From an uncultured Gemmatimonadales bacterium (GTDB lineage Bacteria > Gemmatimonadota > Gemmatimonadetes > Longimicrobiales > Gaopeijiaceae), in NCBI GenBank assembly GCA_963848895.1, contig CAWKGE010000008.1, forward strand, positions 196,901 through 260,900: a stretch of DNA of 64,000 bases, in the 5' to 3' direction. The stretch's first letter is position 1. Each line of letters starts with the position of its first letter. Shown here piece after piece: positions 1,933-60,812 of the stretch. The position numbers and the translations under genes were made by a program. Below the pieces are notes generated by a model, which did not search any database, was not told the origin of the DNA, and worked only from the letters and a program-made list of their open reading frames with translations.

Positions 1933-3751
1933 GTGCAGCTCGTCGCGGCCGATTGGATGGTGGTCGCCGTGTACGGCGTCGTCACGCTCACCCTCGGCTT
2001 CTGGTTCAGCAGGCGCGCGGGACGCAGCCTCGAGGAGTACTTCGTGGCCGGCCGCGCGTTGCCGTGGTGGATCGCCGGAACGTCGATCGCGGCGACGTGG
2101 TTCGCCACCGACGCACCGCTCGCCACCGCCTCGCTCGTGCGCCAGCGCGGCATCTTCGCGAACTGGCTGTGGTGGTACGAGGCAGCCGGGATCATGCTTC
2201 TCGTCTTCTTCTACGCGAAGCTCTGGAGGCGCGCGGCGATCCTCACCGACGCCGAGTTCATCGAGCTGCGCTACGCCGGCCGGCCCGCCTCGGCGCTGCG
2301 CGGCTTCAGCGCGCTGTACCAGGGGCTGCTGAAGAACTGCGTGGTGATGGGGTGGGTCATGCTCGCCATGGTGAAGTTCAGCTCGGTGATGCTGGGCTGG
2401 AATCCGGAAGCGACGCTCGCGGTGTGCGTCGCGCTCGCGCTCCTGTACACGGTGGCGTCGGGCCTGTGGGGTGTCGTCGTCACAGACCTCCTGCAGTTCG
2501 TCGCCGGGATGACCGGATCGCTCGTGCTCGCCTGGGTGGTGCTCGCCCGCGTCGGCGGCCCACGCGCGATGGCCGCCGGAATCCGTGCGCTCCCGGACGC
2601 GCCGGTGGGCACGCTGGACATCCTCCCGAACCCCGCGCACCTGAGCCCACTCGAGTTCGCGTCGCTCCTCTGCCTGATCCTCCTGCTGTGGACCCGCAGC
2701 GGACAGGGCGACGGCTACCTGGCGCAGCGCCTCTTCGCGGCGCGGGACGAGCGTCAGTCCGTCCTGTCGGCGCTCTGGTTCGCCCTCGCCGGGACCGTGC
2801 TCATGACCTGGCCGTGGGTGGTGGTGGGGCTGGGCTCGCTCCTCATCCTCCCGGTGGCTTCGGCCACGCCCGCCCTCGCCGCCGATCCAGAGCTCGCCTA
2901 CCCGATGATGATCGCGCAGCTCATGCCCGCCGGACTGCGCGGCCTCATGGTCGCCAGCTTCCTGGCGGCGTTCATGAGCACGATGGACACGCACCTCTGC
3001 TGGGGCGCCTCCTATCTGGTCAACGACGTCTACAAGCGCTTCCTCAGGCGGGACGCCGAGGAGCGGCACTACGTGCTCGCGTCGCGGGGCGCGGTCCTGA
3101 TCCTGGTGGTGCTGGCGGCGCTCACCGCCTGGCAGATGGACACGATCGAGCGGGCGTGGATCTACGTGATCGAGCTCACCGTCGGGCGTGGCGCTCGTGT
3201 GGCTCCTGCGCTGGTACTGGTGGCGTGTCAACGCGTGGGCAGAGATCGCGGCGATGGCCGGCTCCGTGCTGCTCGCCAACGGTCGGGTGCTGCTCGGTTG
3301 GGCCGGGTCGGCCGGCGTGCTCGGCCCCGACACCGTCGCCGCGGTCGGGGCCTTCTACGGGTCGGACTACGACTTCCTGCGGGCGCTCTTCATCCTGGTG
3401 GTGTGCAGCGTCCTCTGGGTCGCGGTCGCCCTCCTCACGCGCCCCACCGACGCGGCGCACCTGGACCGCTTCTACCGGAAGGTGCGGCCCGGCGGGTGGT
3501 GGGGCCCCGTGGCCGCACGGTGCGGCCGGGTCGACACCGGCCTGCCGCCGGCCCACGTGCGCTGGACGGGGTGGGCCGCGGGCATGGTCTTCCTGTACGC
3601 CTGGCTGGTCGGCGTCGGCCACGTGCTCACGGGCAGGTCCGCCTCGGGGGTGACCCTGCTGATCCTGGGGGCAGCCAGCGGCTATGTGACCCTCAGGCTC
3701 ACGGAACGGGGCACCCCCGAAGCGGTTACGCCTCCGCCATCGCCCTCCTGA
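1933..3751 (+). CDS. Sodium:solute symporter (SSS) family transporter. There is a +1 frameshift at about 3186 (extra G in a GGG run).
   Basis: N-terminal 415 aa is typical SSS (AGRALPWWIAGTSIAATWF...). After ...VIELTVG the conserved continuation VALVWLLRWYWWRVNAW is in the next frame. Removing one G restores a single ~605-aa ORF ending at 3751. Confidence 0.75.
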
Positions 3752-5801
3752 TCCGCGCGGGCGTCATCGGAAGCTCGTACACGCGAACGCCGAGGGCGTC
3801 GTGGATGGCGTTGGCCAGCACCGCCCCCACGAGGATGATCGCAGGCTCGCCCCCGCCCTGGGGACCGATGTCCGGGTTGTCCACCAGCACGACCTCGATC
3901 TCCGGGACCCAGGAGAACTGCGGGATCCGGTAGGAGTCGAAGTTCTGGTCGTGGATCTCGCCGCGGGCGAAGTGGACCTCTTCGCTGAGCGCGTAGCCGA
4001 GGCCCATCGTGAGGCAGCCCTCGACCTGGAGCGTCGCGCCCTGCGGGTTGATCACCTCGCCCATGTCCTGGGCGCACACGATGCGCGCCACCTGCACCGT
4101 GCCGCGCTCCCGGTCCACGTCCACCTCGGCGGTGGCTGCGACGTAGGTTCCCGCGTCGATCCCGCACGCGAGCCCGAAGCCCCGTCCCGACGGCGCGGGG
4201 CGCATCTCGAGCCCGCACCGGTCCGCCGCGGCACGCAGCACGTTGCGCATCCTCCGGTCCTGCAGGTTCGCCAGACGGAAGTCCAACGGGTTCATACCCG
4301 CCGCCGAGGCCATCACGTCCACGTGCGACTCGATGGCGAAGTGGTTCACGTTCGCGCCCGGGGCCCGCCACGCGCCGGTGGCCAGGGGGTGGACGTCACC
4401 GCCCTCGAACGTCACGCGATGGTCACCCACGTCGTAGACCGGGCGCGAGCCGCGGCTGGTCCCGTGCTTGTTCGCATAGTCCCAGAACGCCAGCCGACCG
4501 TCGGCACCCAGCCCGGCCGCGACGTGCACGATCGCCGCCTGGCGGAAGTTGTCGTAGAAGAACTCCTCCCGGCGGCTCCACGCCACGCACACCGGTGCGC
4601 CCGCGAGCCGGGATAACCGTGCGGCTTCCAGCGCCTGGGCGTTGTAGTTCTTCCCACCGAACGCGCCGCCCACGAATGGGGTCACGACCCGGACCCGCTC
4701 CTCCGGCCATTTCAAGACCTCCGCGATCTGCGCACGCAGCGGGAACGGGTTCTGCGTGGACGCCCATACCGTGGCGCCGTCCTCCTTCACGCTGGCGATG
4801 GCGGCATGCGGCTCGATCGGCGCGTGGGAGACGTAGCGCGCACGGTACGTGCGCTCCTCGACGTGCGTGGCCTCCGCACGGCCCGCCTCGATGCGGCCGG
4901 CTTCGGTCACCACCTGCGGACGAGACCGGCTGGTCTCCAGATGCGTGAACAGCGTGTCGTCGTCGACGCCCTGGGTGGGCGTGTCCCATCGCACGCGCAC
5001 ACGCTCCAGCGCCGACTCCGCGACGTCGGGGTGCTCGTGCAGGACCGCGATCAGGTCGCCCTCGCGTACGACGCGGGCGCCCTCCACGTCCCCGACGCCC
5101 GAGCTGTCCACGTCGAGCAGGCGCGACCCGTGCGCCGGAGGACGCAGCAGCTTGGCGTGCAGCAGTCCCGGAAGGCGCAGGTCGGCCGCGTAGCGCGCCC
5201 TTCCCGTGACCTTGAGCGCGGCGTCGAGGCGAGGCGCGGGCTTGCCGCATATCACATGTTCCGCCAGCGGCTTGGGGGACACGTCGCCCCGCGCGGTTCG
5301 TTCGATGCGCCGTCCACGGGCCAGCTCGGCGTACGTCACCGAGTGGTCCGGACTGGCCGCCTCGTACACCCTGCCGTCACGGGTCGCCAGGCCCTCGACC
5401 GGGACCCCGAGTCGCTCGCTCCCGAGCTCCAGCAACACCTGGCGGGCGGTGGCCGCCGCGTTCCGGAGCGCCGGACCGAAGAAGCGCATCGTGCGCGATC
5501 CGCTCGTGCCCGAATCCCACGGACAGAGCTCCGTGTCGCCCATGACCGGCTCGATGGACGTGAGCGGTACGTCCAGCTCTTCGGCGAGGACCTGGGGCAG
5601 CGACGTGTACACGCCCTGCCCCATCTCGATCTTGCCGGTGAAGAGCGTGACGCGACCGTCCTCGCCGATTCGCAGGTAGACGTTGAAGTCGGTGGGGTAT
5701 TCCTGCGCGCCGAGCTCGCGCACCAGCGTCGACAGGTCGACGGCGCACAGGACGATGATCCCACCGCCGCCGATCTTCAGGAACTCACGCCGCGTGGTCA
5801 T
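3726..5801 (-). CDS. Xanthine dehydrogenase/aldehyde oxidase family molybdopterin-binding large subunit (IorB / isoquinoline 1-oxidoreductase beta-like) with a Tat signal.
   Basis: 692 aa from the ATG at 5801 (MTTRREFLKIGGGG... twin-arginine motif). A GGAGG RBS lies upstream. It overlaps the small-subunit stop by 4 nt (ATGA). Conserved motifs are present throughout (GxGxxT...QNPFP...GGAFGGK...) and the ORF has no frameshift. Confidence 0.85.
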   Translation of the reverse strand: MTTRREFLKIGGGGIIVLCAVDLSTLVRELGAQEYPTDFNVYLRIGEDGRVTLFTGKIEMGQGVYTSLPQVLAEELDVPLTSIEPVMGDTELCPWDSGTSGSRTMRFFGPALRNAAATARQVLLELGSERLGVPVEGLATRDGRVYEAASPDHSVTYAELARGRRIERTARGDVSPKPLAEHVICGKPAPRLDAALKVTGRARYAADLRLPGLLHAKLLRPPAHGSRLLDVDSSGVGDVEGARVVREGDLIAVLHEHPDVAESALERVRVRWDTPTQGVDDDTLFTHLETSRSRPQVVTEAGRIEAGRAEATHVEERTYRARYVSHAPIEPHAAIASVKEDGATVWASTQNPFPLRAQIAEVLKWPEERVRVVTPFVGGAFGGKNYNAQALEAARLSRLAGAPVCVAWSRREEFFYDNFRQAAIVHVAAGLGADGRLAFWDYANKHGTSRGSRPVYDVGDHRVTFEGGDVHPLATGAWRAPGANVNHFAIESHVDVMASAAGMNPLDFRLANLQDRRMRNVLRAAADRCGLEMRPAPSGRGFGLACGIDAGTYVAATAEVDVDRERGTVQVARIVCAQDMGEVINPQGATLQVEGCLTMGLGYALSEEVHFARGEIHDQNFDSYRIPQFSWVPEIEVVLVDNPDIGPQGGGEPAIILVGAVLANAIHDALGVRVYELPMTPARIRRAMAEA

Positions 5802-44332: not shown

Positions 44333-46810
44333 ATGGAGCAGCACGTTCGTACGACCATGTCCACCGAAGACAGAGACACCTACAGCCCGTCGCGGGTCGA
44401 AGAGAAATGGCAGCGCCTGTGGGAGGAGCGTGGCACCAACACGTTCACGCTCGAGGCGCTGACGACCGCGGAGGAGCCGTTCTACAACCTCATGATGTTC
44501 CCCTACCCCTCCGCCGAGGGGCTGCACGTGGGCAACATCTACGCCTTCACGGGCGCGGACGTGCACGGCCGCTACCAGCGGATGCGCGGACGCACGGTGT
44601 TCGAGCCGATCGGCTTCGACGCCTTCGGGATCCACTCGGAGAACTTCGCCCTGAAGCGGGGCGTGCATCCGATGGACCTGATCCCGTCCAACGTGCGCAA
44701 CTTCACCCGGCAGCTCCGACGCACCGGCGGGATGTTCGACTGGAACCACGCCGTCAACACGACCGATCCCGCCTACTACAAGTGGACGCAGTGGATCTTC
44801 CTGCAGCTCTTCAAGGCCGGGCTGGCCGAGCGCAAGGAGGCTCCGGTCAACTGGTGTCCTTCGTGCATGACCGTGCTGGCCAACGAGCAGGTCATCGGGG
44901 GTGCGTGTGAGCGGTGCGGCACCCCGGTCGAGCAGCGACGCATCGCGCAATGGTTCTTCCGGATCACGAAGTACGCCGAGCGACTCCTCGACAACCTGGA
45001 GACGCTGGATTGGTCCGACACGACCCGCTCCGCCCAGACCAACTGGATCGGCCGCAGCGAGGGCGCACGCCTGCGCTTCCCCGTGCTGGGCGCGGACGCG
45101 ACGGAGACGGGGGGAACGATCGAGGTGTTCACGACCCGCCCGGACACCGTATTCGGCGCCACCTACATGGTGCTCGCCCCCGAGCACCCGCTGGTGGACG
45201 CGCTGACCGACGAAGCGCACGCCGCGAAGGTACGGGCCTACCGCGAGGAGGCGGTTCGCAAGGACCTGGTCGCCCGGCAGAAGGTGGACAAGACGAAGAC
45301 CGGCGAGTTCACCGGGGGCTACTGCCGCAACCCGGCCACGGGGGAGCCGATCCCCGTCTGGATCGCGGACTACGTGCTGATGGAGTACGGCACCGGCGCG
45401 ATCATGGCGGTGCCCGGCCACGACGAGCGCGACTTCGAGTTCGCCACGCAGTTCGCGCTGCCGATCGTGCGGGTCGTCGCCGGCCCCGGCGAGGACGCCG
45501 ACACGCCGCTCGGGGAGGCGTACGTCGGGCCGGGCGTCCTGGTGAACTCCTCCGACTTCGACGGCACCGACGTGGACGACGCGGTCCGCGCGGTGACGGA
45601 GTGGGCGGAGGGCCGCGGGTGGGGTGAGGGGACCGTCAACTACCGGCTGCGGGACTGGTGCATCTCCCGGCAGCGGTACTGGGGACCGCCGATCCCGATC
45701 ATCCACTGCGAGAAATGCGGCTCGGTTGCGGTCCCGGAGGAGGATCTGCCGGTGGTGCTGCCCCGCGTCGAGGACTTCAAGCCCGACGACACGGGGGTGA
45801 GCCCCCTGGCCCGCGTCGAGGCGTGGTACCGGACGACCTGCCCCGAGTGCGGAGGGCAGGCGCGCCGCGAGACCGACGTCTCGGACACGTTCCTCGACTC
45901 CGGCTGGTACTTCCTGCGCTACCCGTCCACCGACTTCGACGACAAGCCCTTCGACCCGGTGCTGACGATGCGGTGGCTACCGGTGGACACGTACATCGGC
46001 GGCAACGAGCACGCGGTGCTGCACCTGCTCTACTCCCGCTTCCTGACCATGGTCCTCCACGACCTGGGGCACCTGGACTTCGAGGAGCCGTTCACGGTCT
46101 TCCGCGCCCACGGGCTGATCATCGCCGAGGGCGCCAAGATGTCGAAGAGCAAGGGCAACGTCGTGGTCCCCGACCCGATCATCGAGGAGTACGGCGCGGA
46201 CACGTTCCGCACGTACCTGATGTTCCTGGGGCCGTTCGAGAGCGGGGGCGACTACCGCCAGGAGGGGATCCAGGGGCCGTACGGATTCCTGCACCGGCTG
46301 TGGGACACCGTGCTCGCGGCGGAGGAAGGCGAGCCGGACGCGTCCGTCGAGCGCAAGCTGCACCGGACCATCCAACAGGTGACCGAGCAGCTGCCCGACC
46401 TGCAATACAACACCGCCATCGCGGCGATGATGGAGTATCTGAACGCGGCGAGGGCCGGAGGGCGCAAGGCCGTGCGCGCGGAGGTGGAGCCGCTGGTGTC
46501 GCTCGTGGCGCCCTTCGCGCCCCACCTGGCCGAGGAGCTGTGGGAGCGCCTGGGGCACGAGGGCAGCATCTTCGACGGTGCCAACTGGCCGGAGTACGAT
46601 CCGGCCAAGACCGTCGAGGACACGGTGAACTACGCGGTGCAGGTCAACGGCAAGCTGCGCGGCACCGTGGCGGTGGCCCGCGCAACGGACGAGGCCGACG
46701 TCGTCGCCCTCGCCCGCGCCGAAGAGAACGTCGCGCGCCACCTGGACGGCGCGACGGAGCGCAAGGTCGTCTTCGTGAAGGACCGTCTCGTGAACTTCGT
46801 GGTGTCATGA
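44333..46810 (+). CDS. leuS: Leucine--tRNA ligase.
   Basis: 825 aa, intact, with HVGN(IY) (HIGH-type) and KMSKS motifs, the editing domain and the anticodon-binding domain. The stop overlaps the tkt start. Confidence 0.92.
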
Positions 46811-48763
46811 ATCACATCGAGCGTCTGGCGATCGACGCAGTCCGTGTCCTGTCCATGGACGCGGTGCAGAAGGCCAATTCCGGACACCCGGGCACGCCGA
46901 TGGCGCTGGCGCCGTTCGGGTACGTCCTCTTCCACCGCCACCTGCGCCACAACCCGAAGAACCCCGTGTGGCCGGATCGCGACCGCTTCGTCCTGTCGGC
47001 GGGGCACGCGTCCATGCTCCTCTACTCGCTGCTCCATCTGAGCGGCTACGACGTCGACGAGGACGACATCCGCGCCTTCCGCCAGTGGGGCTCCGCGACG
47101 CCGGGCCACCCCGAGTACGGGCATACGCCGGGGGTCGAGTGCACCACCGGCCCGCTGGGCCAGGGCATCGCGATGAGCGTGGGGATGGCCCTCGCCGAGC
47201 GCTGGCTCGCGGAGCGCTTCAACCGCCCCGGGCACGAGATCGTCGAGCCACAACACGTGGGCGCTGTGCTCCGACGGCGACCTGATGGAGGGCATCAGCC
47301 ACGAGGCGGCGGAGCTCGCGGGGCACCAGAAGCTCGGCAAGCTCACATGGATCTGGGACGACAACCACATCACCATCGAGGGCCGCTCGGAGCTGGCGCG
47401 CTCCGCCGACCAGATCCGTCGGTTCGAGGCGTACGGCTGGCACGTCATCGACGTGCACGACGGCAACGACCTCGAGGCGATGGACCTCGCGCTGGAGGAG
47501 GCCAAGCGCGAGACGGAGCGCCCCAGCCTGATCGTCGCTGCGCACGGTCATCGCCTGGGGCAGCCCAAACAAGGCGGGTACCGCGGAGGCGCACGGTGCG
47601 CCCCTCGGCCGCGACGAGGTCGACGCGACGAAGGCGCAGCTCGGGTACCCCTCGCTCGATCCCTTCTGGGTCGACGAGCTCGCGCGGGAGCACTGGCGTG
47701 CGTGCATCCGAAAGGGGGAGCGCCTCGAGGAGGCGTGGAACGCGCGCTACCAGATCTACCGGGTGGAGCACCCCGAGGAAGCGAAGGAGCTCGAGCGGGC
47801 CATCACCGGCCAGCTTCCCGACGACTGGAACGCGGACGTCCCGGACTTCCTCTACGCGGTCAAGGCGGACGCGACGCGCGGGTGGTCCGGCAAGGTGCTC
47901 CAGGGCCTCGCGAAGCGCGTCCCCAACCTGGTGGGCGGCTCCGCGGACCTCGGTCCGTCGAACAAGACCGACATCAAGGGTGCCGACGACCTCCTGCCGC
48001 AGACCCCGGGTGGGCGTATCGTCCACTTCGGTGTGCGCGAGCACGCGATGGGCGGCGTCATGAACGGGATGGCGCTGCACGGTGGGGTCCGCCCCTTCGG
48101 CGGCACCTTCCTGATCTTCTCCGACTACATGCGCCCGGCGATCCGCCTCGCGGCGCTCATGGGCCAGCCCGTCGTCTACGTGTTCACGCACGACTCGATC
48201 GGCCTCGGGGAGGACGGACCCACGCACCAGCCGGTCGAGCACCTGGCTGCCCTGCGGGCCATCCCCGGCCTCGTGGACCTGCGCCCCGGCGACGCCGCCG
48301 AGACGGCGGTCGCGTGGCAGGTCGCGCTCGAGCGCTCGGACGGCCCGACCTTCCTGGCGCTCTCGCGCCAGTCGGTGCCGATCCTCGATCGGGACGCGCT
48401 CGGCTCCGCCGACGGACTGCGCCGCGGCGGGTACGTCCTGGCGGAGGCGAGCGGCGACGCACCGGGCGCGATCCTCATCGCCTCGGGGAGCGAGCTGGCC
48501 CTCGCGCTCGATGCGCGTGAGCGCCTGGAGTCGGCGGGCGTAGCGACGCGCGTCGTGAGCCTGCCCAGTTGGCATCTCTTCGCCGAGCAGAGCGTGGCCT
48601 ACCGACATCGCGTGCTTCCTCCTTCGATCAGGGCGCGCGTCGTCCGTCGAGGCCGCCACCACCTTCGGCTGGGAGCGGTGGGTCGGATCCGATGGCCACG
48701 CCGTGGGCATCGATCGCTTCGGAGCATCGGCCCCGGCGGAGGTGCTCTACCAGCAGCTCGGGA

Positions 48764-50169
<1,406 letters not shown>

Positions 50170-50262: not shown

Positions 50263-51055
50263 TCAGGCTGCCCGCCGGCGGAGCGCGGGCGGCAGTGGAG
50301 GCACGCGCGTGATGCGCTGCTGCCGGCGCCGGCGGCGTACGACCGGTCGGTCGTAGCGCGTCTCGGCGCGGCACCCGGCGTGACGCGCCCACGCCTTCCA
50401 CGACGCCCCGTGCCCGTAGTTGCCGTCGAAGAGGTAGTCGGCCACGTGGGCCATCTCGTGGAGCAGGGTGTCCATGCGCTCGGCGCCGTTCCCCTCGAGC
50501 ATGAGATCGACGTTCAACGCGATCTCGAGCACGTAGCGTCCGCGTCGCCTGTCCTGGCCCGGGATCATGTGGCCGAGCGACGCACTCATGCGATTGCTCA
50601 GGCGGACGGGAACGTCCTCCGGAAGCAGACCGTCGAAGCGCGTCTTGTTCAGATAGCGGTACAGCGCGCGCAGGTAGGCCCGCTGCTCCGGCGTAGCAGC
50701 AGCAGTGGGTGAGCTCTTCGTCGCCACAGCACCGTGCGGCCGCGCGGCGCTGCCGCTGCGCGTGCGACTTCCGCACCGCTTCGAGCACCGGCGTGAGGCC
50801 GGGCCAGCTCTGCACGCGTTCCGAAGCCTCGCGCACCGCGGGCGTGCTCCACCCGCGCCCCCGGACGATCGTGGCGAACGCATCCAGGACCGACGCCGGC
50901 GCACGGCGATACGCCACGTGCAGGTTGAGCACCGTGGCGTCCTGCGTCAGCGACCAGATCGTGCTGCGGTTGGCGCGGAAGCTGACGCGTTTGAGCCGAC
51001 GGGCTCCGCGGCTCTTCAACTCCCGCAGCGTGTCTTCGGTGGACCGGGCGCGCAT
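50263..51055 (-). CDS. SprT-like zinc-metalloprotease-domain protein with a ~100-aa N-terminal extension. One apparent frameshift near 50690.
   Basis: The ATG at 51055 has a GAGGAAA RBS. The N-terminal region is protein-like. After the shift comes RAYLRALYRYLNKTRFDGLLP…TLLHEMAHVADYLFDGNYGHGASWKAWARHAG (HExxH SprT motif). Confidence 0.6.
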
Positions 51056-51777: not shown

Positions 51778-54700
51778 TCAGCGCGACCGCCCCTCCTCCA
51801 GATAGTCGATGACCGCGCGGTACTCGTCGCGCAGCGCGCCGAACAGCTCCCGGGCCCCGTCCACGTCCCCGGCCTGCCCACGATCCTCCATGTACTGGAG
51901 GAGGAACGCGAGGCGATTCGCGCGGATGTTGCCCGACGCCGACTTCAGCGAGTGCGCGGCCTTGCGGACCTCCTCCGGAGCTCCCGACGTCACGGCCTCC
52001 TCGATCCCGCGGAAGAGCACGGGCGCCTCGGACAGGTAGATCTCCACGGTCGCGTCGACCACCTCTTCGACGCCGGCCTCCCGCATCGTCGCGCGGAAGC
52101 CCTTCAGATCCACCGGTGCGGCCGCGTCGTCACGGTTGTCGCTCACTTCCTCAGCCTCCTTCGATCGTGGGGCGTTCGCCGGGGCACCGATCCATCGCTC
52201 CACCACATCGTAGAGATCGCCGGGCTTGAACGGCTTCGCAACGAAATCGTTCATGCCGGCTGCTCGGCAGCGCTCCCGTTCCTCCGCGAACGCATGGGCC
52301 GTCAGCGCGACGATGGGGAGCGACGCGTTGCCCGGTTGACCGCGAATGCGGCGCGCCGCTTCCAGGCCGTCCATCTCCGGCATCTGGATATCCATCAGCA
52401 CGAGATCGAAGCCTCCGGCTCCCGCCGCCCGCACCGCCTCGACCCCGTCGCGCACGGCCACCACCTCGTGGCCGCGCTTGCTCAGGAGCCCGACGGCGAC
52501 CTGCTGGTTCACGGCGTTGTCCTCCGCGAGCAGGATCCGTGCCCTGGTGGTCGCACGCTCGATGCTCTCCCGCGTGACGATCCGACGCTCCTGACCGGGA
52601 GGCGATCCGAGACCGAGCACAGCCTCCAGGGCCCGGAGCAGCTCGGATCGCGAGACCGGCTTCGCCAGGTATCCGGTGATTCCCGCGGATCGCGCGCGGT
52701 CGGTACCCCCGGCGGGGACCGCGGACGTGACCATCAGGATCGGGGTGTCCGGCGCCTCGCCCACCGTTGCGCAGGCGAAGGGCGAAGTCGAACCCGTCGA
52801 GCTCGGGCATCATGTGATCGAGGATCACGGCGTCGAACGGCCACCCTGCGGCGTTCGCGGACCGCACCGCCTCGAGACCCTCCAACACACCTTCGGCTTC
52901 CGTGACCTCCGCCCCGACCTGGTTGAGGGCCTCGTGCACGATGCGGCGGGCCGTCGCGTTGTCGTCGACCACCAGATACCGACGCTCGGACAGGTCCACG
53001 CCCGGAGCGTGTCCGCGTGTCCGAGACGCGGTCGTCGTGGCCGGGCATGAGCTCGAGGACGAAGTGGAAATCGCTCCCCAGGCCCGGAGCGCTCTCCACC
53101 TCGAGGTGTCCGCCCATGAGCGCCACCAGCCGCCGCGAGATGCTCAGACCCAACCCGGTCCCGCCATGTGTCCGCGTCGTGGACGAGTCGGCCTGCTCGA
53201 ACTCCCGGAAGATCTGCTCCTGCTTGTCGCCGGGGATGCCGATGCCCGTGTCCTTCACGCTGAAGTGGATCCGGTCGCGCCCCTCCACCGCACCCAGCGA
53301 TCGGAGCCGGATCACCACCTCCCCGCGATCGGTGAACTTCACGGCGTTCCCCACGAGGTTCCCGAGGATCTGGCGGATGCGGTGGGGATCGCCGCGCACC
53401 GTCCGGGGCACTCCCCGACCCACGTCCACCACGATCTCGTTGCCGCGCTGCCCGGCGGGCACGGTGAAGATGCGCGCTACCTCGGCCGCCAGGTCGTGCA
53501 GCGCGAAGTCCACCACTTCCAGATCGAGCTGGCCCGCTTCGATCTTGGACATGTCGAGGACGTCGTTCAGGATGCGCAGCAGACCGCGACCCGACTCCCG
53601 GACCACCTGCGCCGTCTGACGCTGTTCGGCCGTCAGGGGAGAATCCAGCAGGATCTCGATCATCCCCAGGATCCCGTTCAGGGGCGTGCGGATCTCGTGG
53701 CTCATGCTCGCCAGGAACGAGCTCTTGGCGCGTGCTCCCTCCTCGGCCTGGATGCGCGCCATCATCTGCGTCTCGCGGGCCTCCACCTGATCGGTGACGT
53801 CCTCGCCCACCAGGATGAGGGTTCCCTCCACCATGCCGCTCCCCAGGGTCCCGGAGAGACGCATCCAGCGAGCCTTGCCGTCCCCACGACGGACCGGCAG
53901 GTCCGCCGTGGTCCGCTGACCCTCCCGGACCATGTCGAGGAACGTCATGAGGGGCGCCCGGTCGCGGGGATCGGTCACCAGCTCCACGAAGGGCTCCCCG
54001 ATGACGCCCGCACCGTCGTACGCCAGCGCCCGTTCGAAGGCGGGGTTGACGCGCATGACGCGGCCCACGCCGTCCAACACCACGATCGGCGTGGGCGCGG
54101 AGCTCAACAGCGCGTTGAGGAAGTCACGCCTGCGGGCCGTCTCCTCCTCCGCCATCCGCAGGCGCACGCCGGCCCGGATCTGCTCGAGGAGCATCCTGTG
54201 TGCCGCGCGATGCACCATCGTCATCACCGACACGAACAGCGCGATGAGCAGGAGCAGGGAGACCCGGCTCCGGTCCATCCCACCGAACAGCACGGCGCCG
54301 GCAAGCGGCCCCAGGATGAGCGCGGTGAGCCCGTAGAACGACGGCTTGTCCGCCACCAGGGTGGATGTCGCCGCCGCGACCAGGCCCGAGAAGATGAGCA
54401 GGAGGAGCGCGAGGTCCGTCGGAGAAGCGTCCGCGTGGAGGACGGCCCACCCACCCCACAGGAGCGCCGCGATCCAGACGTCGCGACGCAACAGGGAGAG
54501 GATCGCACGCGGGTCTTCCAGCCGTGACAGGGCGCGCTTGCGGTTGGCCGCGCGCGCCAGGGTCGTGACCAGGAAGCAAGCGAACCAGGCGACGCTCGCC
54601 CATACCGGATCGGCGCCCCAGAAGACGAACACGGTGAGGGCGGCGAGCGTGATGTGCGCCACGTCCGCCGAGAATCGTCCCGCGAGAAGGTAGCCGGCGA

Positions 54701-54821
54701 GTGCTTCGCGCAACTCTTCGGCAACCCGGCTCGGCGGGTGCGTCTGGGCCTCTCCCGGAAGGACCGCCGAGGCGAGGTCCTCTCCGGAGTCGGGTGCGCC
54801 ATGCGCGTGGCGGTCGGTCAT
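51778..54821 (-). CDS. Hybrid sensor histidine kinase: multi-TM sensor, PAS-like region, HisKA, HATPase_c, two receiver domains and a C-terminal Hpt. Two or three apparent frameshifts (near 53000 and 52750).
   Basis: HisKA SHEIRTPLNGILGM; HATPase N/G boxes GNAVKFT…GTGLGLSI; receivers LVVDDNATARRIV…DHMMPELDG and ILLAEDNAVNQQV…DIQMPEMDG; Hpt …AHSLKSASGNI…. The pieces are spread over three frames. Confidence 0.75.
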
Positions 54822-54957
54822 GGGATCCGGGCGTGGAATGGCACGGATCTAAAGTACGGCCCGGAAGGCGAGAGGCGAGCCCCTTCGCCCTCCGGGCCGT
54901 TCCGCCGCAGGCGCGGCAACAGGGAGCCCAACAGGCGCCCCCTGCTTCACCGACCTG

Positions 54958-56212
54958 CTAGAATGCGGTCACCACGCCGGCCGTCAGCCGTGTGCGGTCC
55001 GAGTGCAGGTCCCGCTGCACCTCCGCCATGAAGCGCAGGTTCCGGGCTTGCAGGTACGTCGCCGTCAGGCTGGCCGACTCGAACATGTCCAGGAAGCCGA
55101 GCTCGCCCACGCGCAAGGTGAATATCGGGCTGTTGGATTCCACCCGGTTGTACAGCGCCGCGAGGTGCCAACGGCCCATCGCCCCCTGCGGAGATGCGAT
55201 CAGCTCCGCCATGTACGAGTCAACCTCCGTCACCAGGGGATCCGAAGCGCCGTAGTCGCAGCGCGGATCGTCCTGCACGCAGGAGTCCAGGAAGAAGGGG
55301 TTTCCGTCACGCCGGTACAGGTACTGGAGGTTGAGCTCGACCTTCGGCCCGAAGGGGACGGTGGCGTCGGGACCCCACACCCGCACCGTGCTCTCGAGCC
55401 CGTCGGTGGCCTTTTCCTTGCCCGCGTATACGTATCCTCCCAACCGGAACAGACCCAGGTCCTGGGAGAGCCTCACGCCGACGTTCTTCGGGGTCTGGGT
55501 GGAGTAGTTCTTCTCCTCGGTGGCCTGGTCCAGGCCGCGCCCGTTCACCAGCTGCACGGCCAGGTCGGCGTTCTTCCACGGTGACGCGAGGGCCATCAGC
55601 CCGCGTTCGTACGTCAGGTCGGTCCCGACGTCGCCGACGCGGACCCGATAGGGCATGTAGTCTTCGTATTCGAGCCGGAGCTCCCGCTTGAAGAGCGGGT
55701 CGGAGAGCTGGAACTGGCCGACGATGAGGTCCACCCCGCTGTTGAAGACGTCGCCGAACTGCAAGTAGGCGTCCTCGAGCCCGGCGACCTCGCCGCGCTC
55801 GGTGAGGAAGAAGTACATGTAGTAGGAGATGTCGTCGGTGACCTGCCCGCCGGTCAGCAGCTTGATGCCCCACGGCGTCTTGAAGTCCGCGGCCACCGCG
55901 TCCTCGCCCGAGAGGCTGCTCATGTACGCCTCGACGCGGACGGCCAACGGGAGGTCTCGCTGCAGCCTGAGGAGGGGATCGCCCGACCGACATCGTGTCC
56001 ACGGCCGGCTCTCCCCGGGCCATCTGGAAGCCGTTCGCGGCGAACATGTTCCCGAAGGCATTCAACCGCGGGAAGGGCGCGTGGCAGAGCGCGCACGTGA
56101 CCTTGTATTTCCGCGCGAACGCCGGGATCGCATGGGCGTCAGCCGGAAGAAGGGGCAGGAGCAAGAGGGCGGCGAACAACCCGCTCGCTACGCCCCGCCG
56201 GGAACCGTGCAT
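54958..56212 (-). CDS. Cyc2-like fused monoheme cytochrome c / outer-membrane beta-barrel porin (candidate Fe(II) oxidase). One apparent frameshift near 55985.
   Basis: GGGAGG RBS. Signal peptide MHGSRRGVASGLFAALLLLPLLPADAHA is followed by IPAFARKYKVTCALCHAPFPRLNAFG (CxxCH). The remaining ~370 aa have amphipathic beta-strand periodicity and end in …TAGVVTAF. Confidence 0.6.
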
Positions 56213-56346
56213 GGAGAACCTCCCTGTGGGGGGAACGGGGCGCGCGTCACCCCGTGGTCGAAGATCTCCGCAGTCGATGCGCCGTCGCTGTCGGGAGAGC
56301 CACCAACGTCGTGCAGGGGTTTTCCCGACGGCCACGGACCCCGAGG

Positions 56347-56883
56347 TCAATGGTGGTCGTCGTCGCCCTCACGCTCGCCGCGTTCGCCGCCCTCGGACCG
56401 CCCGGGCGCCCGGATGGCGCCGGAGTCCGCCGATGCCACGTAGACCGACGCCGCACCGTGCTCGTAGACCAGCTTGCCGCCCAGGTCGCCCACCCGCACC
56501 GCCAGGCCCAGCACGACCAGGCCCCCCAGGACCGACAGCCACCGGGCACCCTGTCCCACCTTCCCCCGCACCAGGCCGAGGAGAACCACCGCGGTCAGGA
56601 TCGCCGAGCCCAGGAGTAGCCCCTCGGCGGCCTCCTCGTGGCCGTGGATCAGGCTCTCGGACACCACGCGCTCCACGACGTCCTCCTGCTGCTGGCCCGT
56701 CTCGATAGCGACCCAGGCCGAGCCCACGAGGAGGAGGGCCATGACGGTGAGGCCGATCCAGGCACCCCGCCCCGCGCCCGGGCGGCGGGACACGATGAGG
56801 GCCGCGGCGGCGACGAAGGGGAAGAGGACCGACAGCACGAGGGGGAAGTGGACGACGGCGGGGTGCAGGGGGTGCGGCAGCAT
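56347..56883 (-). CDS. DUF2231-like integral membrane protein (possible heme/redox partner).
   Basis: 178 aa from the ATG at 56883: MLPHPLHPAVVHFPLVLSVLFPFVAAAAL…. Four TM helices carry conserved His residues. The acidic C-terminus ends ERGEREGDDDHH. Confidence 0.55.
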   Translation of the reverse strand: MLPHPLHPAVVHFPLVLSVLFPFVAAAALIVSRRPGAGRGAWIGLTVMALLLVGSAWVAIETGQQQEDVVERVVSESLIHGHEEAAEGLLLGSAILTAVVLLGLVRGKVGQGARWLSVLGGLVVLGLAVRVGDLGGKLVYEHGAASVYVASADSGAIRAPGRSEGGERGEREGDDDHH

Positions 56884-57004
56884 GCTCGACTCCGGTTGAA
56901 GGACGCCCGGAACCTCGGCGATCTTTCGGCGGTCCTCCATCCGACAGATGCTCCAGACGCCCCCGGAGTGCCCTTCCGGACATCCGACAAACGACGGAGA
57001 CGGC

Positions 57005-57560
57005 ATGAGAGAAGTCAACGGCGACGGGCCTCCTCGGCTCTACCTGGTGCTGGCCGCCCTCTTCGCGCTGATCATGGTGGCGGCCGCCGCGGACCTCGCC
57101 ATGGACCGCCCGCCCACCCTGCTCAGCCTGCACGTGCTGGCCGAGGCGACGCTCGTGCTCATGAGCCTCGGGGCCGCGTCCTATCTCGCCTGGGGGTGGT
57201 ACAGCGCGTTGCGCGACGTGCGAATCACTGGAGGCCGAAGTAGCGGAGCGGCAGGCCGAACGTGACGCATGGAAGGAGCGCGCGGGCCGGGTGCTCGAGG
57301 GGCTGTCCGAGGCCATGGCCGACCAGTTCTCGTCCTGGGAGCTGACCGAGGCGGAGCGCGCGACCGCCCTCATGCTCCTCAAGGGCTACAGCCACAAGCG
57401 CATCGGCAAGCTCACCAACCGGAGCGAGCGCACCGTGCGCCAGCACGCCGTGGCGGTCTACCGGAAGTCCGGCCTGGCAGGACGCGCGGGGCTCTCCGCG
57501 TTCTTCCTGGAGGACCTCCTGCTCCCGGCTTCGGACCGCGAAGTGGGAGACGGGGACTGA
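57005..57560 (+). CDS. Membrane-anchored LuxR-family (HTH) transcriptional regulator. One apparent frameshift near 57225.
   Basis: N-terminal two-TM region (LYLVLAALFALIMVAAAADLA…LVLMSLGAASYLAWGWY) is in one frame. A coiled linker plus the LuxR HTH (LTEAERATALMLLKGYSHKRIGKLTNRSERTVRQHAVAVYRKSGL) is in the next frame. It is divergent from the DUF2231 gene. Confidence 0.6.
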
Positions 57561-57630: not shown

Positions 57631-60600
57631 TCAGGAGATGATGCGACCCTGCTCCGGCAGCACGATGGCCGGCAGGCCGAGACGTTCCACCGCCTCGTTG
57701 AAGCGTGCGAGCTCGTTCTGCAGGATCGAGAGATAGCGGCCACGCACCGCGGCCCAGTCGCGGTTCAGGTCGCCGAGCCGCTCGTACGCCCCCGGCGTGG
57801 GCCTGCCCTCGGGCCCTCCCGAGATGTAGCCGTCCACGCCGGTCACGTAGTTGTAGAGCTCGATGAACTGGTTGTCGAGCTTCGGCGGGAATCGGATGGG
57901 GTCCTGGCCCGACTGGTTCTTCGTCTGCTGCATCTCCTCGTGGACCTCGGTGGACTTCGTCTGGAGCGTGTCCGCCAGCGGCTCCAGCGTGGCCGCCTGC
58001 CCCGCCGCCTCGGCCTTGTCCACCACCTGCTCCACCTGCTCGCGGATCGCGCGCAGGTTCTCGATGGCGTGGGTCACCGCCGTGATGGAGTCGCGGATCT
58101 CCATCCCCGCGCGGAACTGCTCGTCGTAGTCGGCCTGGGTGACCTCGGTCAGGCGCGGGTCGCCGAGCACGCGGAGCGTCTGCTCCTGCGGGTGCGCCGC
58201 TCCCGACGCTCATGCGCACCGCGTAGGTCCCGGGAGGCGCCTTCACGCCACCCGTATAGCCCCACATCCACCGCGTCGTCGGGGAGCTCGGGGGCCGGGA
58301 TAGGAGAGATCCCACACGATGCGATGGAGGCCCGCCGTCTTCTCGATGCGTGTGCCGCGCCCCTCGGCCGCGGCCGCCGAGTCGCTGGAGAAGAGGTGGG
58401 CGACGCGCCCGGAGCCGTCGACGACCTCGACGCGCACCTCGCCCTCCGGCTCGCTCTTCAGCCAGTAGTGGAGCGTCGCCCCCTGGGGCGGTGCCTCGGG
58501 CCCCAATTCGCTCAGGCCTCCCTCGACGCCCGCGCTGTTCACCCGGTACGCGTCCCGCGGGGCGAGCAGTCGTGCGTCCGCGGCCACGACCTGCGCGCTC
58601 AGCTGGCGCAGCGGCGTGACGTCGTCGAGGATCCAGAAGGAGCGACCCTGCGTGGAGAGGATCAGGTCGTCGTGCGCGACCTTGATGCCCGTCACGGGGC
58701 TGATGGGCAGGTCGCGCTGGATCGACTGCCAGTGCGCGCCGCCGTCGAACGACGCGAAGATCCCGTACTCGGTGCCGGCGAAGAGCAACCCTTCGCGCTC
58801 GGTGTCCTCCCGCACCGTACGAACCGGGTAGTCCGCCGGGATGCCGTTCGTCCCGTCCGTCAACAAGCGCCACGATACGCCCCAGTCGTCCGTGCGGAAG
58901 ATGTAGGGACGGAAGTCGTCGAGCCGGTATGCGTGCACGGCCACGTACGCCCGTCCGGCGGCGTGCGGGGAAAGCTCGATCTCGTCGACCGTGCCGAGCT
59001 TCGGCATCCCCGGCGGCGTGATCTCCGTCCACGTGGCGCCGCCGTCGCGCGTGACGTGCAGGCGGCCATCGTCGGTGCCCGCCCACAGCTCGTTCGGGTC
59101 GGTGGCCGACTCGGCGATCGAGAACACCACCTCGAAGATCTCCACGCCCGTGACGTCCGCGTTGATCGGCCCGCCCGACTGCGCCTGGTAGCGCGGATCG
59201 TTCGTCGTGAGATCGGGGCTGATCGTCTCCCACGTCACGCCCTCGTCACGCGAGCGGTTCACGTGCTGCGAGCCGTGGTACACGGTCTTCGGGTCGTGGA
59301 GCGACACCAGGATGGGCGACACCCACTGGAAGCGATGCTTCAGGTCCGCCGCCGCCGAGCCGAGCTGCAGCTGCGGGTACAGGTTCATGTTGCGCACCTG
59401 GTCCGTGGTGTGGTCGTAGCGATCGATGACGCCGCCGTAGCATCCGGCGTAGGTGATCTCCGGGTGGTCCGGGTGCAGCGCGACCGGTCCCGTCTCGCAG
59501 CCGCCCACGTTCAGCCAGTGCTGCTTCGGGTAGAGCGTGTTGCTCGACATCCACGCGGGCACGGACACCGTCGTGTTGTCCTGCTGTGCGCCGTAGAGCC
59601 GGTAGGGGAAGGCGTTGTCCACGACCACGTCGTACAGCTCGGCCGTCGGCTGGTTGTAGTACGTGGACCAGGTCCGTCCGCCGTTCACCGTCACCTGCGC
59701 GCCGCCGTCGTCGGCGATGATCATGCGGTCGGGGTCGTCCGGATGGATCCACAGGTCGTGGGTATCGCCGTGCGGCACCGGGATCTCTTCGAACGTCTTC
59801 CCGCCGTCCACGGAGCGGTACACGCTCGTGTTGAGGGCGTACACGGTGTTCGGGTCCTGCGGATCGGCCTGCACGTGCGTGTAGTACCAGGCGCGCTGGC
59901 GCAGCTTGTTCTCGCTGTTCGTGCGCGTCCACGTCCGGCCCGCGTCGTCGGAACGGTAGACGCCGCCCTCCGGCTCGGCCTCCAGGATCGCCCACACCCG
60001 GTCGGGGTCCGCTGGCGACACGGTCACGCCCACCTTCCCCACGACGCCCTCGGGCAGGCCGCCGTGCAGCTTCGTCCAGGTGTCGCCGCCGTCGGTGGAC
60101 TTGTAGACGCCGCCCTCCTCCCCCCCGGAGATCATCGCCCACGGCTTGCGCTCGCCGCGCCACATCCCGGCGTACAGCTCGCGCGGGTTCTTCGGGTTCA
60201 GGCTGAGCGCGGAGGCGCCGGTCGAGTCGCTGACGGCGAGCACGTGCTCCCACGTCGCGCCGCCGTCCCTGGAGCGGAAGATCCCCCGCTCCGGGTTCTT
60301 CCCGAAGGCGTGCCCGAGCGCAGCGACGTAGACCAGGTCGGCGTCCTTCGGGTGCACCACGATCCGGCTCACCTGCCCCGCCTCGGGCAGGCCGATGAAC
60401 GTCCAGGTCCGGCCGCCGTCCATCGACTTCCACACCCCCCGTCCCGCCGACGTGTTGCCGCGGATGTCGGCCGAGCCCATCCCGACGTAGATCACGTTCG
60501 GATCCGAGTCGGCGACGGCCACGGCGCCGATGGAGCCCCCGAAGAAGCCGTCCGTGATGTTGCGCCAGCTGGTGCCCGCGTCCGTGCTCAGCCAGACGCC

Positions 60601-60812
60601 CCCGCCCGTGGACCCCATGAGCCAGCGGTCCGGGTCGTTCACGAAGCCGGTGACGGCGGAGGAGCGCCCGCCCCGGTACGGACCGACCATGCGGTAGTGC
60701 AGTCCGGCGAGGGCGAGGGTGTCGAACGGCGCCTGGCGGGCGGTCGCCGGCTCCGCCACGACCGTGGAGAGGGCGACGGCGACGAAGACGTGAGCAACGA
60801 CGAACGGGACAT
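57631..60812 (-). pseudogene. Sortilin/VPS10-like double beta-propeller BNR-repeat protein gene (secreted). At least three apparent frameshifts.
   Basis: The ATG at 60812 precedes a signal peptide that needs a 1-nt repair (MSRS/VVAHVFVAVALSTVVAEPATA). About 830 aa of BNR/Asp-box repeats follow (SxDxGxTW many times). The C-terminal ~180 aa (LGDPRLTEVTQADYDEQF…) are in another frame, with shifts near 58250 and 58180. Confidence 0.65.

Follow-up and report, generated by a model that had tools for sequence, protein, structure and literature searches.

A candidate outer-membrane cytochrome-porin gene was analysed on the minus strand at positions 54958-56212 of a 64,000-nucleotide stretch of contig CAWKGE010000008.1, from an uncultured Gemmatimonadales bacterium; the whole stretch is called the window below. 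Judged by its sequence features and profile alignments, the encoded protein very probably belongs to the Cyc2 family and has the Cyc2 architecture. Taken as a whole, the best explanation, and a fairly probable one, was a member of the Cyc2 superfamily in which a monohaem cytochrome c is fused to an outer-membrane porin. By analogy with characterised Cyc2 proteins, Fe(II) oxidation would be the most likely function, and the confidence placed in such a physiological role falls a little short of even. The gene is almost certainly intact in the organism and was under-called at 321 amino acids (aa) owing to an assembly indel.

The description of Cyc2 by Keffer et al. 2021 (PMC8406198) comprises a signal peptide, a single CXXCH and a length of at least 365 aa, together with the motif AXPXFAR[Q/K][T/Y] 5' of CXXCH, which is stated to be 'unique to Cyc2', a PXL motif 4 residues past CXXCH, and a 16-strand porin modelled on OprO/OprP (PDB 4RJW, 2O4V). 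Every sequence feature of this description was found in the window protein, namely a signal peptide (by inspection), one CXXCH, AIPAFARKY, PRL and 417 aa, and the OprO/OprP-like 16-strand barrel was found in the predicted structure. The features of the gene were located as follows.

54958..56212, minus strand: cyc2-like coding region including the TAG stop, in two frames as deposited and 417 aa once one base is removed
56219..56224, minus strand: Shine-Dalgarno-like GGGAGG, 6 nucleotides 5' of the ATG (sequence inspection only)
56212, minus strand: ATG start codon of the cyc2-like gene
56129..56212, minus strand: predicted Sec signal peptide MHGSRRGVASGLFAALLLLPLLPADAHA, residues 1-28 (by inspection)
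56027..56128, minus strand: monohaem cytochrome c module IPAFARKYKVTCALCHAPFPRLNAFGNMFAANGF, residues 29-62, the mature N-terminus (from invariant residues and hhalign to the classical Cyc2 cytochrome domain)
56105..56131, minus strand: AIPAFARKY, residues 28-36, an instance of AXPXFAR[Q/K][T/Y] (motif definition from PMC8406198)
56081..56095, minus strand: CALCH, residues 40-44, the sole c-type haem attachment site
56063..56071, minus strand: PRL, residues 48-50, the PXL motif, starting 4 residues past CXXCH
55981..55984, minus strand: frame break, one extra base in GGGC where GGC GAT (Gly-Asp) is expected (from homolog junctions and tblastn)
54961..55947, minus strand: predicted 16-strand porin barrel, residues 89-417, with C-terminal ...GVVTAF
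54958-54960, minus strand: TAG stop after ...TAGVVTAF, in the second frame

By inspection, the signal peptide had an RR n-region, a Leu-rich core, a cleavage site between AHA and IP, and no lipobox Cys. It was immediately followed by the haem-module stretch IPAFARKYKVTCALCHAPFPRLNAFG, in which three residues (KVT) lay between AIPAFARKY and the first Cys of CXXCH. A sequence-only reading of the window had pointed to the GGGAGG ribosome-binding site with a start at 56212, a classical signal peptide, a single CxxCH in a PxFAR(Q/K)Y context, an end in ...TAGVVTAF and a length of about 418 aa, and all of these were recovered at the positions listed above. The Cyc2 signature that it had named coincided with the published motifs AXPXFAR[Q/K][T/Y], CXXCH and PXL (PMC8406198). 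A promoter and terminator scan of 54600-57200 detected none.

The conservation of the haem module was then evaluated across homologs. Among 5.8 billion proteins searched, 2632 matched at E ≤ 1e-3, and details were taken from the best 120. Among these 120, all of which were annotated 'hypothetical protein', the identities were 54-91% apart from the public call of the window gene itself (P0007, 100%), the full-length proteins measured 390-444 aa, and the named organisms were Longimicrobiales, Gemmatimonadales or Gemmatimonadota. Exactly one CXXCH was present in 116 of 116 full-length proteins, in the shared context IPAFAR[KQ]Y-x3-CxxCH-x3-P-x-L-x2-[FV]G, and nearly all of them terminated in an aromatic residue; the remaining four of the 120, without the motif, were N-terminally truncated calls of 321-359 aa. 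The best named matches were metagenome-assembled genomes (MAGs) of Longimicrobiales and the G+C content was 71%, in agreement with the Gemmatimonadota-type genome that the sequence-only reading had suspected.

In an alignment of 74 homologs at 53-90% identity (A1), P30, F32, A33, R34, Y36, C40, C43 and H44 of the haem module were invariant, as were P48, L50, G54, F57, A58, N60, G61 and F62, giving 16 of the 34 module positions. Many barrel positions were invariant as well, most clearly in the block GQFQ.SDP..KRELR....DY...R at residues 165-189. A HMMER scan of 1.84 billion representatives (50% clustering) returned 157 at E ≤ 1e-30, 811 at ≤ 1e-10 and 3263 at ≤ 1e-3. Of the listed representatives with 360 aa or more, only 2 did not keep the single CXXCH, and the flank varied among FARQY, FARRY, FARKH, FSRKY and FARNT, grading towards the classical FARQT. 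Since the motif is invariant in the full-length homologs and kept in distant representatives, the haem site appears to be under selection, and the conservation of CxxCH that the Cyc2-like assignment called for was found together with the Cyc2-specific flank. A PDB sequence search with the family profile gave noise only (E ≥ 0.6), and tblastn against PLSDB plasmids gave no match at E ≤ 1.

For comparison with classical Cyc2, one genome per species was scanned for DNA encoding PxFARQT-x3-CxxCH, and at least 120 loci were obtained. The loci listed included Acidithiobacillus (L013), Sideroxydans (L042), Gallionella (L066, L068), Gallionellaceae (L047), Zetaproteobacteria/Mariprofundaceae (L016, L024, L028, L083) and Chlorobiota (L082), as well as many Proteobacteria, Acidobacteriota and Bacteroidota and two Gemmatimonadota (L021, L052). 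From these loci 87 complete open reading frames (ORFs) of at least 365 aa were taken, in which the spacing from motif to CXXCH was the same as in the window protein and the motif lay at the cleavage site in nearly all. The set was selected by the motif, so that similarity around the motif is to some extent circular and only porin-only tests escape that selection.

The alignment of A1 with the classical alignment by hhalign had a probability of 99.2 and E 8e-20 over 154 columns, and residues 29-62 were placed on the classical Cyc2 cytochrome domain. A full-length 50-sequence profile gave a probability of 99.7 and E 1.2e-26 over 349 columns. After removal of the haem module, the shallow A1 profile (effective number of sequences, Neff, 2.4) matched all classical barrels at E 1.8e-4, and the porin-only 50-sequence profile (Neff 4.8, built from representatives at the 50% level) matched them with a probability of 94.7 and E 5.7e-8 over 278 collinear columns, essentially the entire barrel. 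Against each classical sub-group the latter profile gave about 7e-4 over about 280 columns, about equidistant from both, and reversed-sequence controls gave E 0.2-0.7 over at most 31 columns. Home-made hidden Markov models (HMMs) of the classical clusters, which carry no calibrated cut-off, scored the protein at 51.8 and 52.8 bits (E about 1e-12 for a million-sequence space), and the Cyc2-like assignment of the sequence-only reading was upheld. The weak porin-only values of the shallow profile (E 1.8e-4 to 0.04) had raised the idea that another porin lineage captured a Cyc2 haem module; this idea was dropped in view of the collinear whole-barrel match of the deeper porin-only profile and the clean reversed controls.

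According to these alignments, homology to Cyc2 extends along the entire protein, which sits on a deep separate branch. Porin-only, the classical sub-groups matched each other at E 2.7e-12 over 302 columns, and the clade of the window protein, named FARKY after its motif and made up, where organisms are named, mainly of Longimicrobiales/Gemmatimonadota, appears to lie further from the classical clusters than those lie from one another. The published Cyc2 tree holds 1593 sequences and includes Clusters 1, 2 and 3 (PMC8406198). As K and Y are alternatives in the published motif, the branch may already be within that tree.

The domain order of the window protein was the same as in Cyc2PV-1 (Mariprofundus ferrooxydans, Cluster 1), Acidithiobacillus ferrooxidans Cyc2 and Leptospirillum Cyt572: a signal peptide, AXPXFAR[QK][TY]-x3-CXXCH-x3-PXL, a 16-strand OprP-like barrel and an aromatic end. 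The length was also similar to that of known Cyc2 (about 400-480 aa), although at 417 aa the window protein fell below most of the classical set (mostly 410-540). The window protein differed in the K-Y form of the motif, FARKY, where classical proteins have FARQTG, and the internal conservation of the FARKY clade (53-90% identity) was unusually high compared with classical Cyc2. Unlike the Acidithiobacillus Cyc2 gene, which adjoins cyc1, cox and rus-type genes, the window gene has no such neighbours.

Several other loci of the classical scan deserve description. The two Gemmatimonadota loci, L021 (4812-4856, minus strand) and L052 (2086-2130, plus strand), encoded FARQTG-type Cyc2 of 453 and 461 aa with an extra approximately 25 residues between signal peptide and motif; their presence beside the FARKY clade implies two distinct Cyc2 lineages in Gemmatimonadota. 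Complete ORFs of 91-93 aa were found at L020 (motif 3920-3964, minus strand) and L062 (2557-2601, plus strand) in Alphaproteobacteria MAGs, one of them Roseiarcus. These ORFs consisted only of a signal peptide and a Cyc2-type haem module (ATPQFARQTGKSCNFCH..PRLND.GLAFKN.GF) with no downstream barrel in any frame, and seem to represent the Cyc2 cytochrome domain as a separate protein without fusion. The Zetaproteobacteria contig L037 carried two Cyc2 motif matches (13-57 and 3293-3337) on the same strand 3.3 kb apart, which are probably neighbouring paralogous cyc2 genes.

The fold was predicted by AlphaFold2 from A1, with a mean predicted local distance difference test score (pLDDT) of 82.2 and a predicted template modelling score (pTM) of 0.79. 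The predicted barrel ran from residue 89 to 416 with 16 strands, DSSP elements 105-109 and 114-123 being counted as one, and a long loop (169-200) joined strands 5 and 6, the constriction-loop position of 16-strand porins. The haem site was flanked by two short helices and followed by an extended linker. The best structural match was OprP, and Omp32 was also among the best; both are plain porins. The beta-barrel on which the sequence-only reading had made its assignment depend was thus predicted. The sequence identity of OprP/OprO (2O4V, 4RJW) to the window protein was only 16%, and OprP has no N-terminal haem module, unlike the window protein. MtrCAB, MtoAB and PioAB share with it the common idea of an outer-membrane barrel with c-type haem for electron exchange with extracellular iron; in these systems a 26-strand barrel is threaded by a separate decahaem cytochrome (PMC8406198). 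The window protein, in contrast, is a single polypeptide with one haem site and 16 predicted strands, and shows neither the 26-strand barrel nor, in the window, the separately encoded decahaem cytochrome that define MtrB/MtoB/PioB.

Two further features were observed in predicted loops. A Cys pair, C311/C319 (55258-55284, minus strand), was conserved in the family consensus and lay in a long predicted loop at residues 303-327, and the loop block SDPLFKRELRLEYEDY (residues 170-185, 55657-55704, minus strand) was almost invariant and modelled at low confidence. Both may be clade-specific functional sites.

Based on these predictions and on the characterised proteins Cyc2PV-1, A. ferrooxidans Cyc2 and Cyt572 as models, a working mechanism can be proposed. 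The protein would be exported by Sec and cleaved after AHA, leaving a haem module of about 35 residues (IPAFARKY...CALCH...PRL...FG...NGF) at the mature N-terminus, tethered through a linker of about 25 residues to the predicted 16-strand OprP-like barrel. By analogy, haem would be covalently attached in the periplasm and the cytochrome module would lie in or at the periplasmic opening of the pore. Once inside the pore, dissolved Fe2+ would give up one electron to the haem, and a soluble carrier in the periplasm, with its gene elsewhere in the genome, would take that electron on. The three model proteins are the only ones for which covalently bound haem, a place in the outer membrane and Fe(II) oxidase activity have been demonstrated (PMC8406198).

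The two frames of the deposited gene were examined through homolog junctions and translated searches. The break sits within TCGGTCGGGCGAT. Beyond ...DTMSVG the first frame turned to Arg/Pro-rich nonsense and the sequence continued in the +1 frame, and the second frame read DPLLRLQRDL... through ...TAGVVTAF as a clean ORF. The repaired junction DTMSVGDPLLRLQRD was letter-for-letter that of the homolog P0003 (83% identical) and near-identical in other homologs. With the ortholog of the closest relative, L003, tblastn gave collinear pieces at 56227-55982 (frame -1) and 55983-54961 (frame -2); both halves were about 84% identical to this ortholog and showed no further lesions. The single frameshift that the sequence-only reading had placed at 55975-55995 was thereby narrowed to the GGGC at 55981-55984. 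The public protein call P0007 was a 321-aa fragment that starts MSSLSGED.

The frame integrity of the window was judged against the same syntenic relative. Four other genes were split over 2-3 frames relative to L003, namely those for transketolase (46807-48774), a SprT-like protein (50290-51055), a hybrid histidine kinase (51787-54809) and a LuxR-type membrane regulator (56948-57551), with at least 7 further frame changes in these four genes over about 14 kb; break points lay near 47240, 47590, 48640, 50698, 52750, 53005 and 57220. In addition, the sortilin/BNR gene (57634-60750) was present as two ORFs of 838 and 179 aa, compared with a single 1058-aa gene in L003. The window as a whole looked like an indel-prone assembly, in which ORF-based annotation of the record will under-call many genes.

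Given this pattern, a true pseudogene, in which a real frameshift parts the haem module from the barrel and leaves no functional protein, is improbable. The deposited break and the shortened 321-aa call speak for it; on the other side, the lesion is a single extra base within a G run, both halves are otherwise whole, and the transketolase, SprT, hybrid kinase and LuxR-type genes are broken alike. As breaks occur in at least 5 genes over about 14 kb, including a gene of central metabolism, the frame break most likely reflects a sequencing or assembly indel rather than gene decay. Still less probable, and indeed highly improbable, is an ordinary diffusion porin, for example for phosphate or other anions, with a chance CXXCH, no haem and no redox role. 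The plain porins OprP and Omp32 as best structural matches and the want of a Pfam cytochrome domain would fit such a protein. A chance motif, however, is hard to reconcile with a CXXCH and 14 flanking positions that are invariant across A1 and persist at 50% clustering, with a flank that is the published Cyc2-specific motif (PMC8406198), and with an N-terminal module that aligns with classical Cyc2 at E 8e-20.

Possible, though on balance unlikely, is the same Cyc2-type architecture in a role other than Fe(II) oxidation for energy, as a general outer-membrane one-electron gate in aerobic heterotrophic Gemmatimonadota. Such a gate could detoxify Fe(II) at the surface, trade electrons with other soluble redox species or export them. 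The clade appears to stand apart from all three clusters that hold characterised oxidases, the gene is alone among housekeeping genes with varying neighbours, and distant members lie beside a multihaem cytochrome (L127) or copper-type genes (L129), all of which would suit a gate of this kind. Keffer et al. allow additional functions and want distant homologs verified (PMC8406198), and the survey of marine Gemmatimonadota could not separate oxidation from reduction (PMC11316326). Against the gate, each of the three family members that have been studied biochemically oxidises Fe(II) (PMC8406198), the cytochrome module with its haem-surrounding residues is the best-conserved part common to the tested oxidases, and no positive evidence for an alternative substrate was found.

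The Cyc2 reading with Fe(II) oxidation has its own difficulties, and the following points weigh against it. The bacteria in question are known as heterotrophs. Scanned against Pfam and NCBIfam, the repaired protein gave no usable match; NCBIfam NF041027 (GSU2204 family CXXCH (seleno)protein) reached 11.2 bits (E 0.12, residues 246-300) against a cut-off of 350 bits. The confidence of the haem module in the AlphaFold2 model was moderate (10-residue block mean pLDDT 47-77). The porin-only shallow profile matched the two classical sub-groups at E 0.04 and 0.007, and the classical HMMs scored the opposite classical sub-group at a median of 75-89 bits, compared with about 52 here. In a porin-only BLAST graph the FARKY clade remained a separate component at cut-offs of E < 1e-10 and < 1e-20 and was linked to the others only at E < 1e-5. 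No conserved neighbouring cytochrome, oxidase or rusticyanin-like gene was found across the compared loci, and there was no other CXXCH in coding-like ORFs of at least 100 aa and no multihaem gene in the 64-kb window, as the sequence-only reading had said of multihaem cytochromes nearby. Finally, the function of homologs distant from the characterised proteins is regarded as uncertain by Keffer et al. (PMC8406198), and in the light of this caution the further claim of the sequence-only reading, that the gene implies capacity for iron oxidation or extracellular electron transfer, went too far.

The genomic surroundings were compared among loci of the clade. The gene upstream of the cyc2-like gene was the DUF2231 gene noted in the sequence-only reading, and the downstream gene was, as also noted there, a sensor kinase, with PAS/HisKA/HATPase domains by Pfam; its counterpart in L003 was a complete hybrid kinase that also has receiver and Hpt domains.

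56347..56883, minus strand: DUF2231 membrane protein gene, upstream (Pfam PF09990, E 1.3e-9), not a conserved partner

The order of DUF2231 gene, cyc2-like gene and kinase gene was common only to the closest relative, L003. The DUF2231 adjacency was absent in L001, L004, L005, L006, L127, L128 and L129, and the neighbours in L001, L002, L004, L005, L006 and L128 were unrelated genes of housekeeping or hydrolase type. Since the adjacency is confined to the nearest relative, a functional link of the cyc2-like gene with either the DUF2231 gene or the hybrid kinase was rejected. The context neither backs nor contradicts a respiratory role, and any periplasmic electron acceptor must be encoded elsewhere, given that the window holds no other coding-like ORF with CXXCH.

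Other observations were made around these genes. A small membrane-anchored LuxR/GerE-type regulator gene (56948-57560, plus strand) was divergent from the DUF2231 gene; it encoded 203 aa in L003, was frame-broken in the window and was kept with the block only in the closest relative. At L127 (5537-8203), the gene of the distant clade member P0127 (400 aa) came immediately after, and in the same orientation as, one for a 448-aa protein that had weak Pfam matches to multihaem cytochromes (Cytochrome_C554, NNT, MtrC-like) and may be a lineage-specific electron-transfer partner. At L129 (5342-8284), the distant member P0257 lay beside a sigma-54 two-component pair and genes of the DUF411, YHS and CopZ types, a setting that hints at metal responsiveness in that lineage.

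Cyc2 serves as the principal marker gene from which microbial iron oxidation is inferred in genomes and metagenomes. Its presence in Gemmatimonadota has already been reported by FeGenie-type surveys: a marine survey described it as 'widely annotated ... cytochrome-c Cyc2' in marine Gemmatimonadota (PMC11316326), and MAGs from the Southwest Indian Ridge carried Cyc2 homologs in 17 phyla, Gemmatimonadota included (PMC9769843). In the literature library searched, no paper other than PMC11316326 tied Cyc2 specifically to Longimicrobiales. The window gene is thus a fresh member of a poorly delineated clade, a real but fairly ordinary find that would not surprise a specialist.

The meaning of the finding lies in the clade. 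Surveys list 'Cyc2' in Gemmatimonadota without its role being known (PMC11316326, PMC9769843), and here a large clade of 'hypothetical proteins' (157 representatives at E ≤ 1e-30, 50% clustering), without a Pfam or NCBIfam model, fitted the tested Cyc2 criteria. As it appears to lie outside the clusters of characterised oxidases, it bears on the trust placed in marker-based claims of iron oxidation for soils and sediments rich in these bacteria. The compact, well-conserved protein is a good candidate for biochemistry and useful for annotation. It is also conceivable, though rather unlikely, that the FARKY proteins form a fourth Cyc2-like cluster, a stand-alone gene of Longimicrobiales/Gemmatimonadota with a role distinct from lithotrophic Fe(II) oxidation. 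If so, the protein might, for instance, detoxify Fe(II) at the surface of an aerobic heterotroph or serve some other one-electron exchange there, and the SDPLFKRELRLEYEDY pore loop and C311/C319 would form a clade-specific substrate site.

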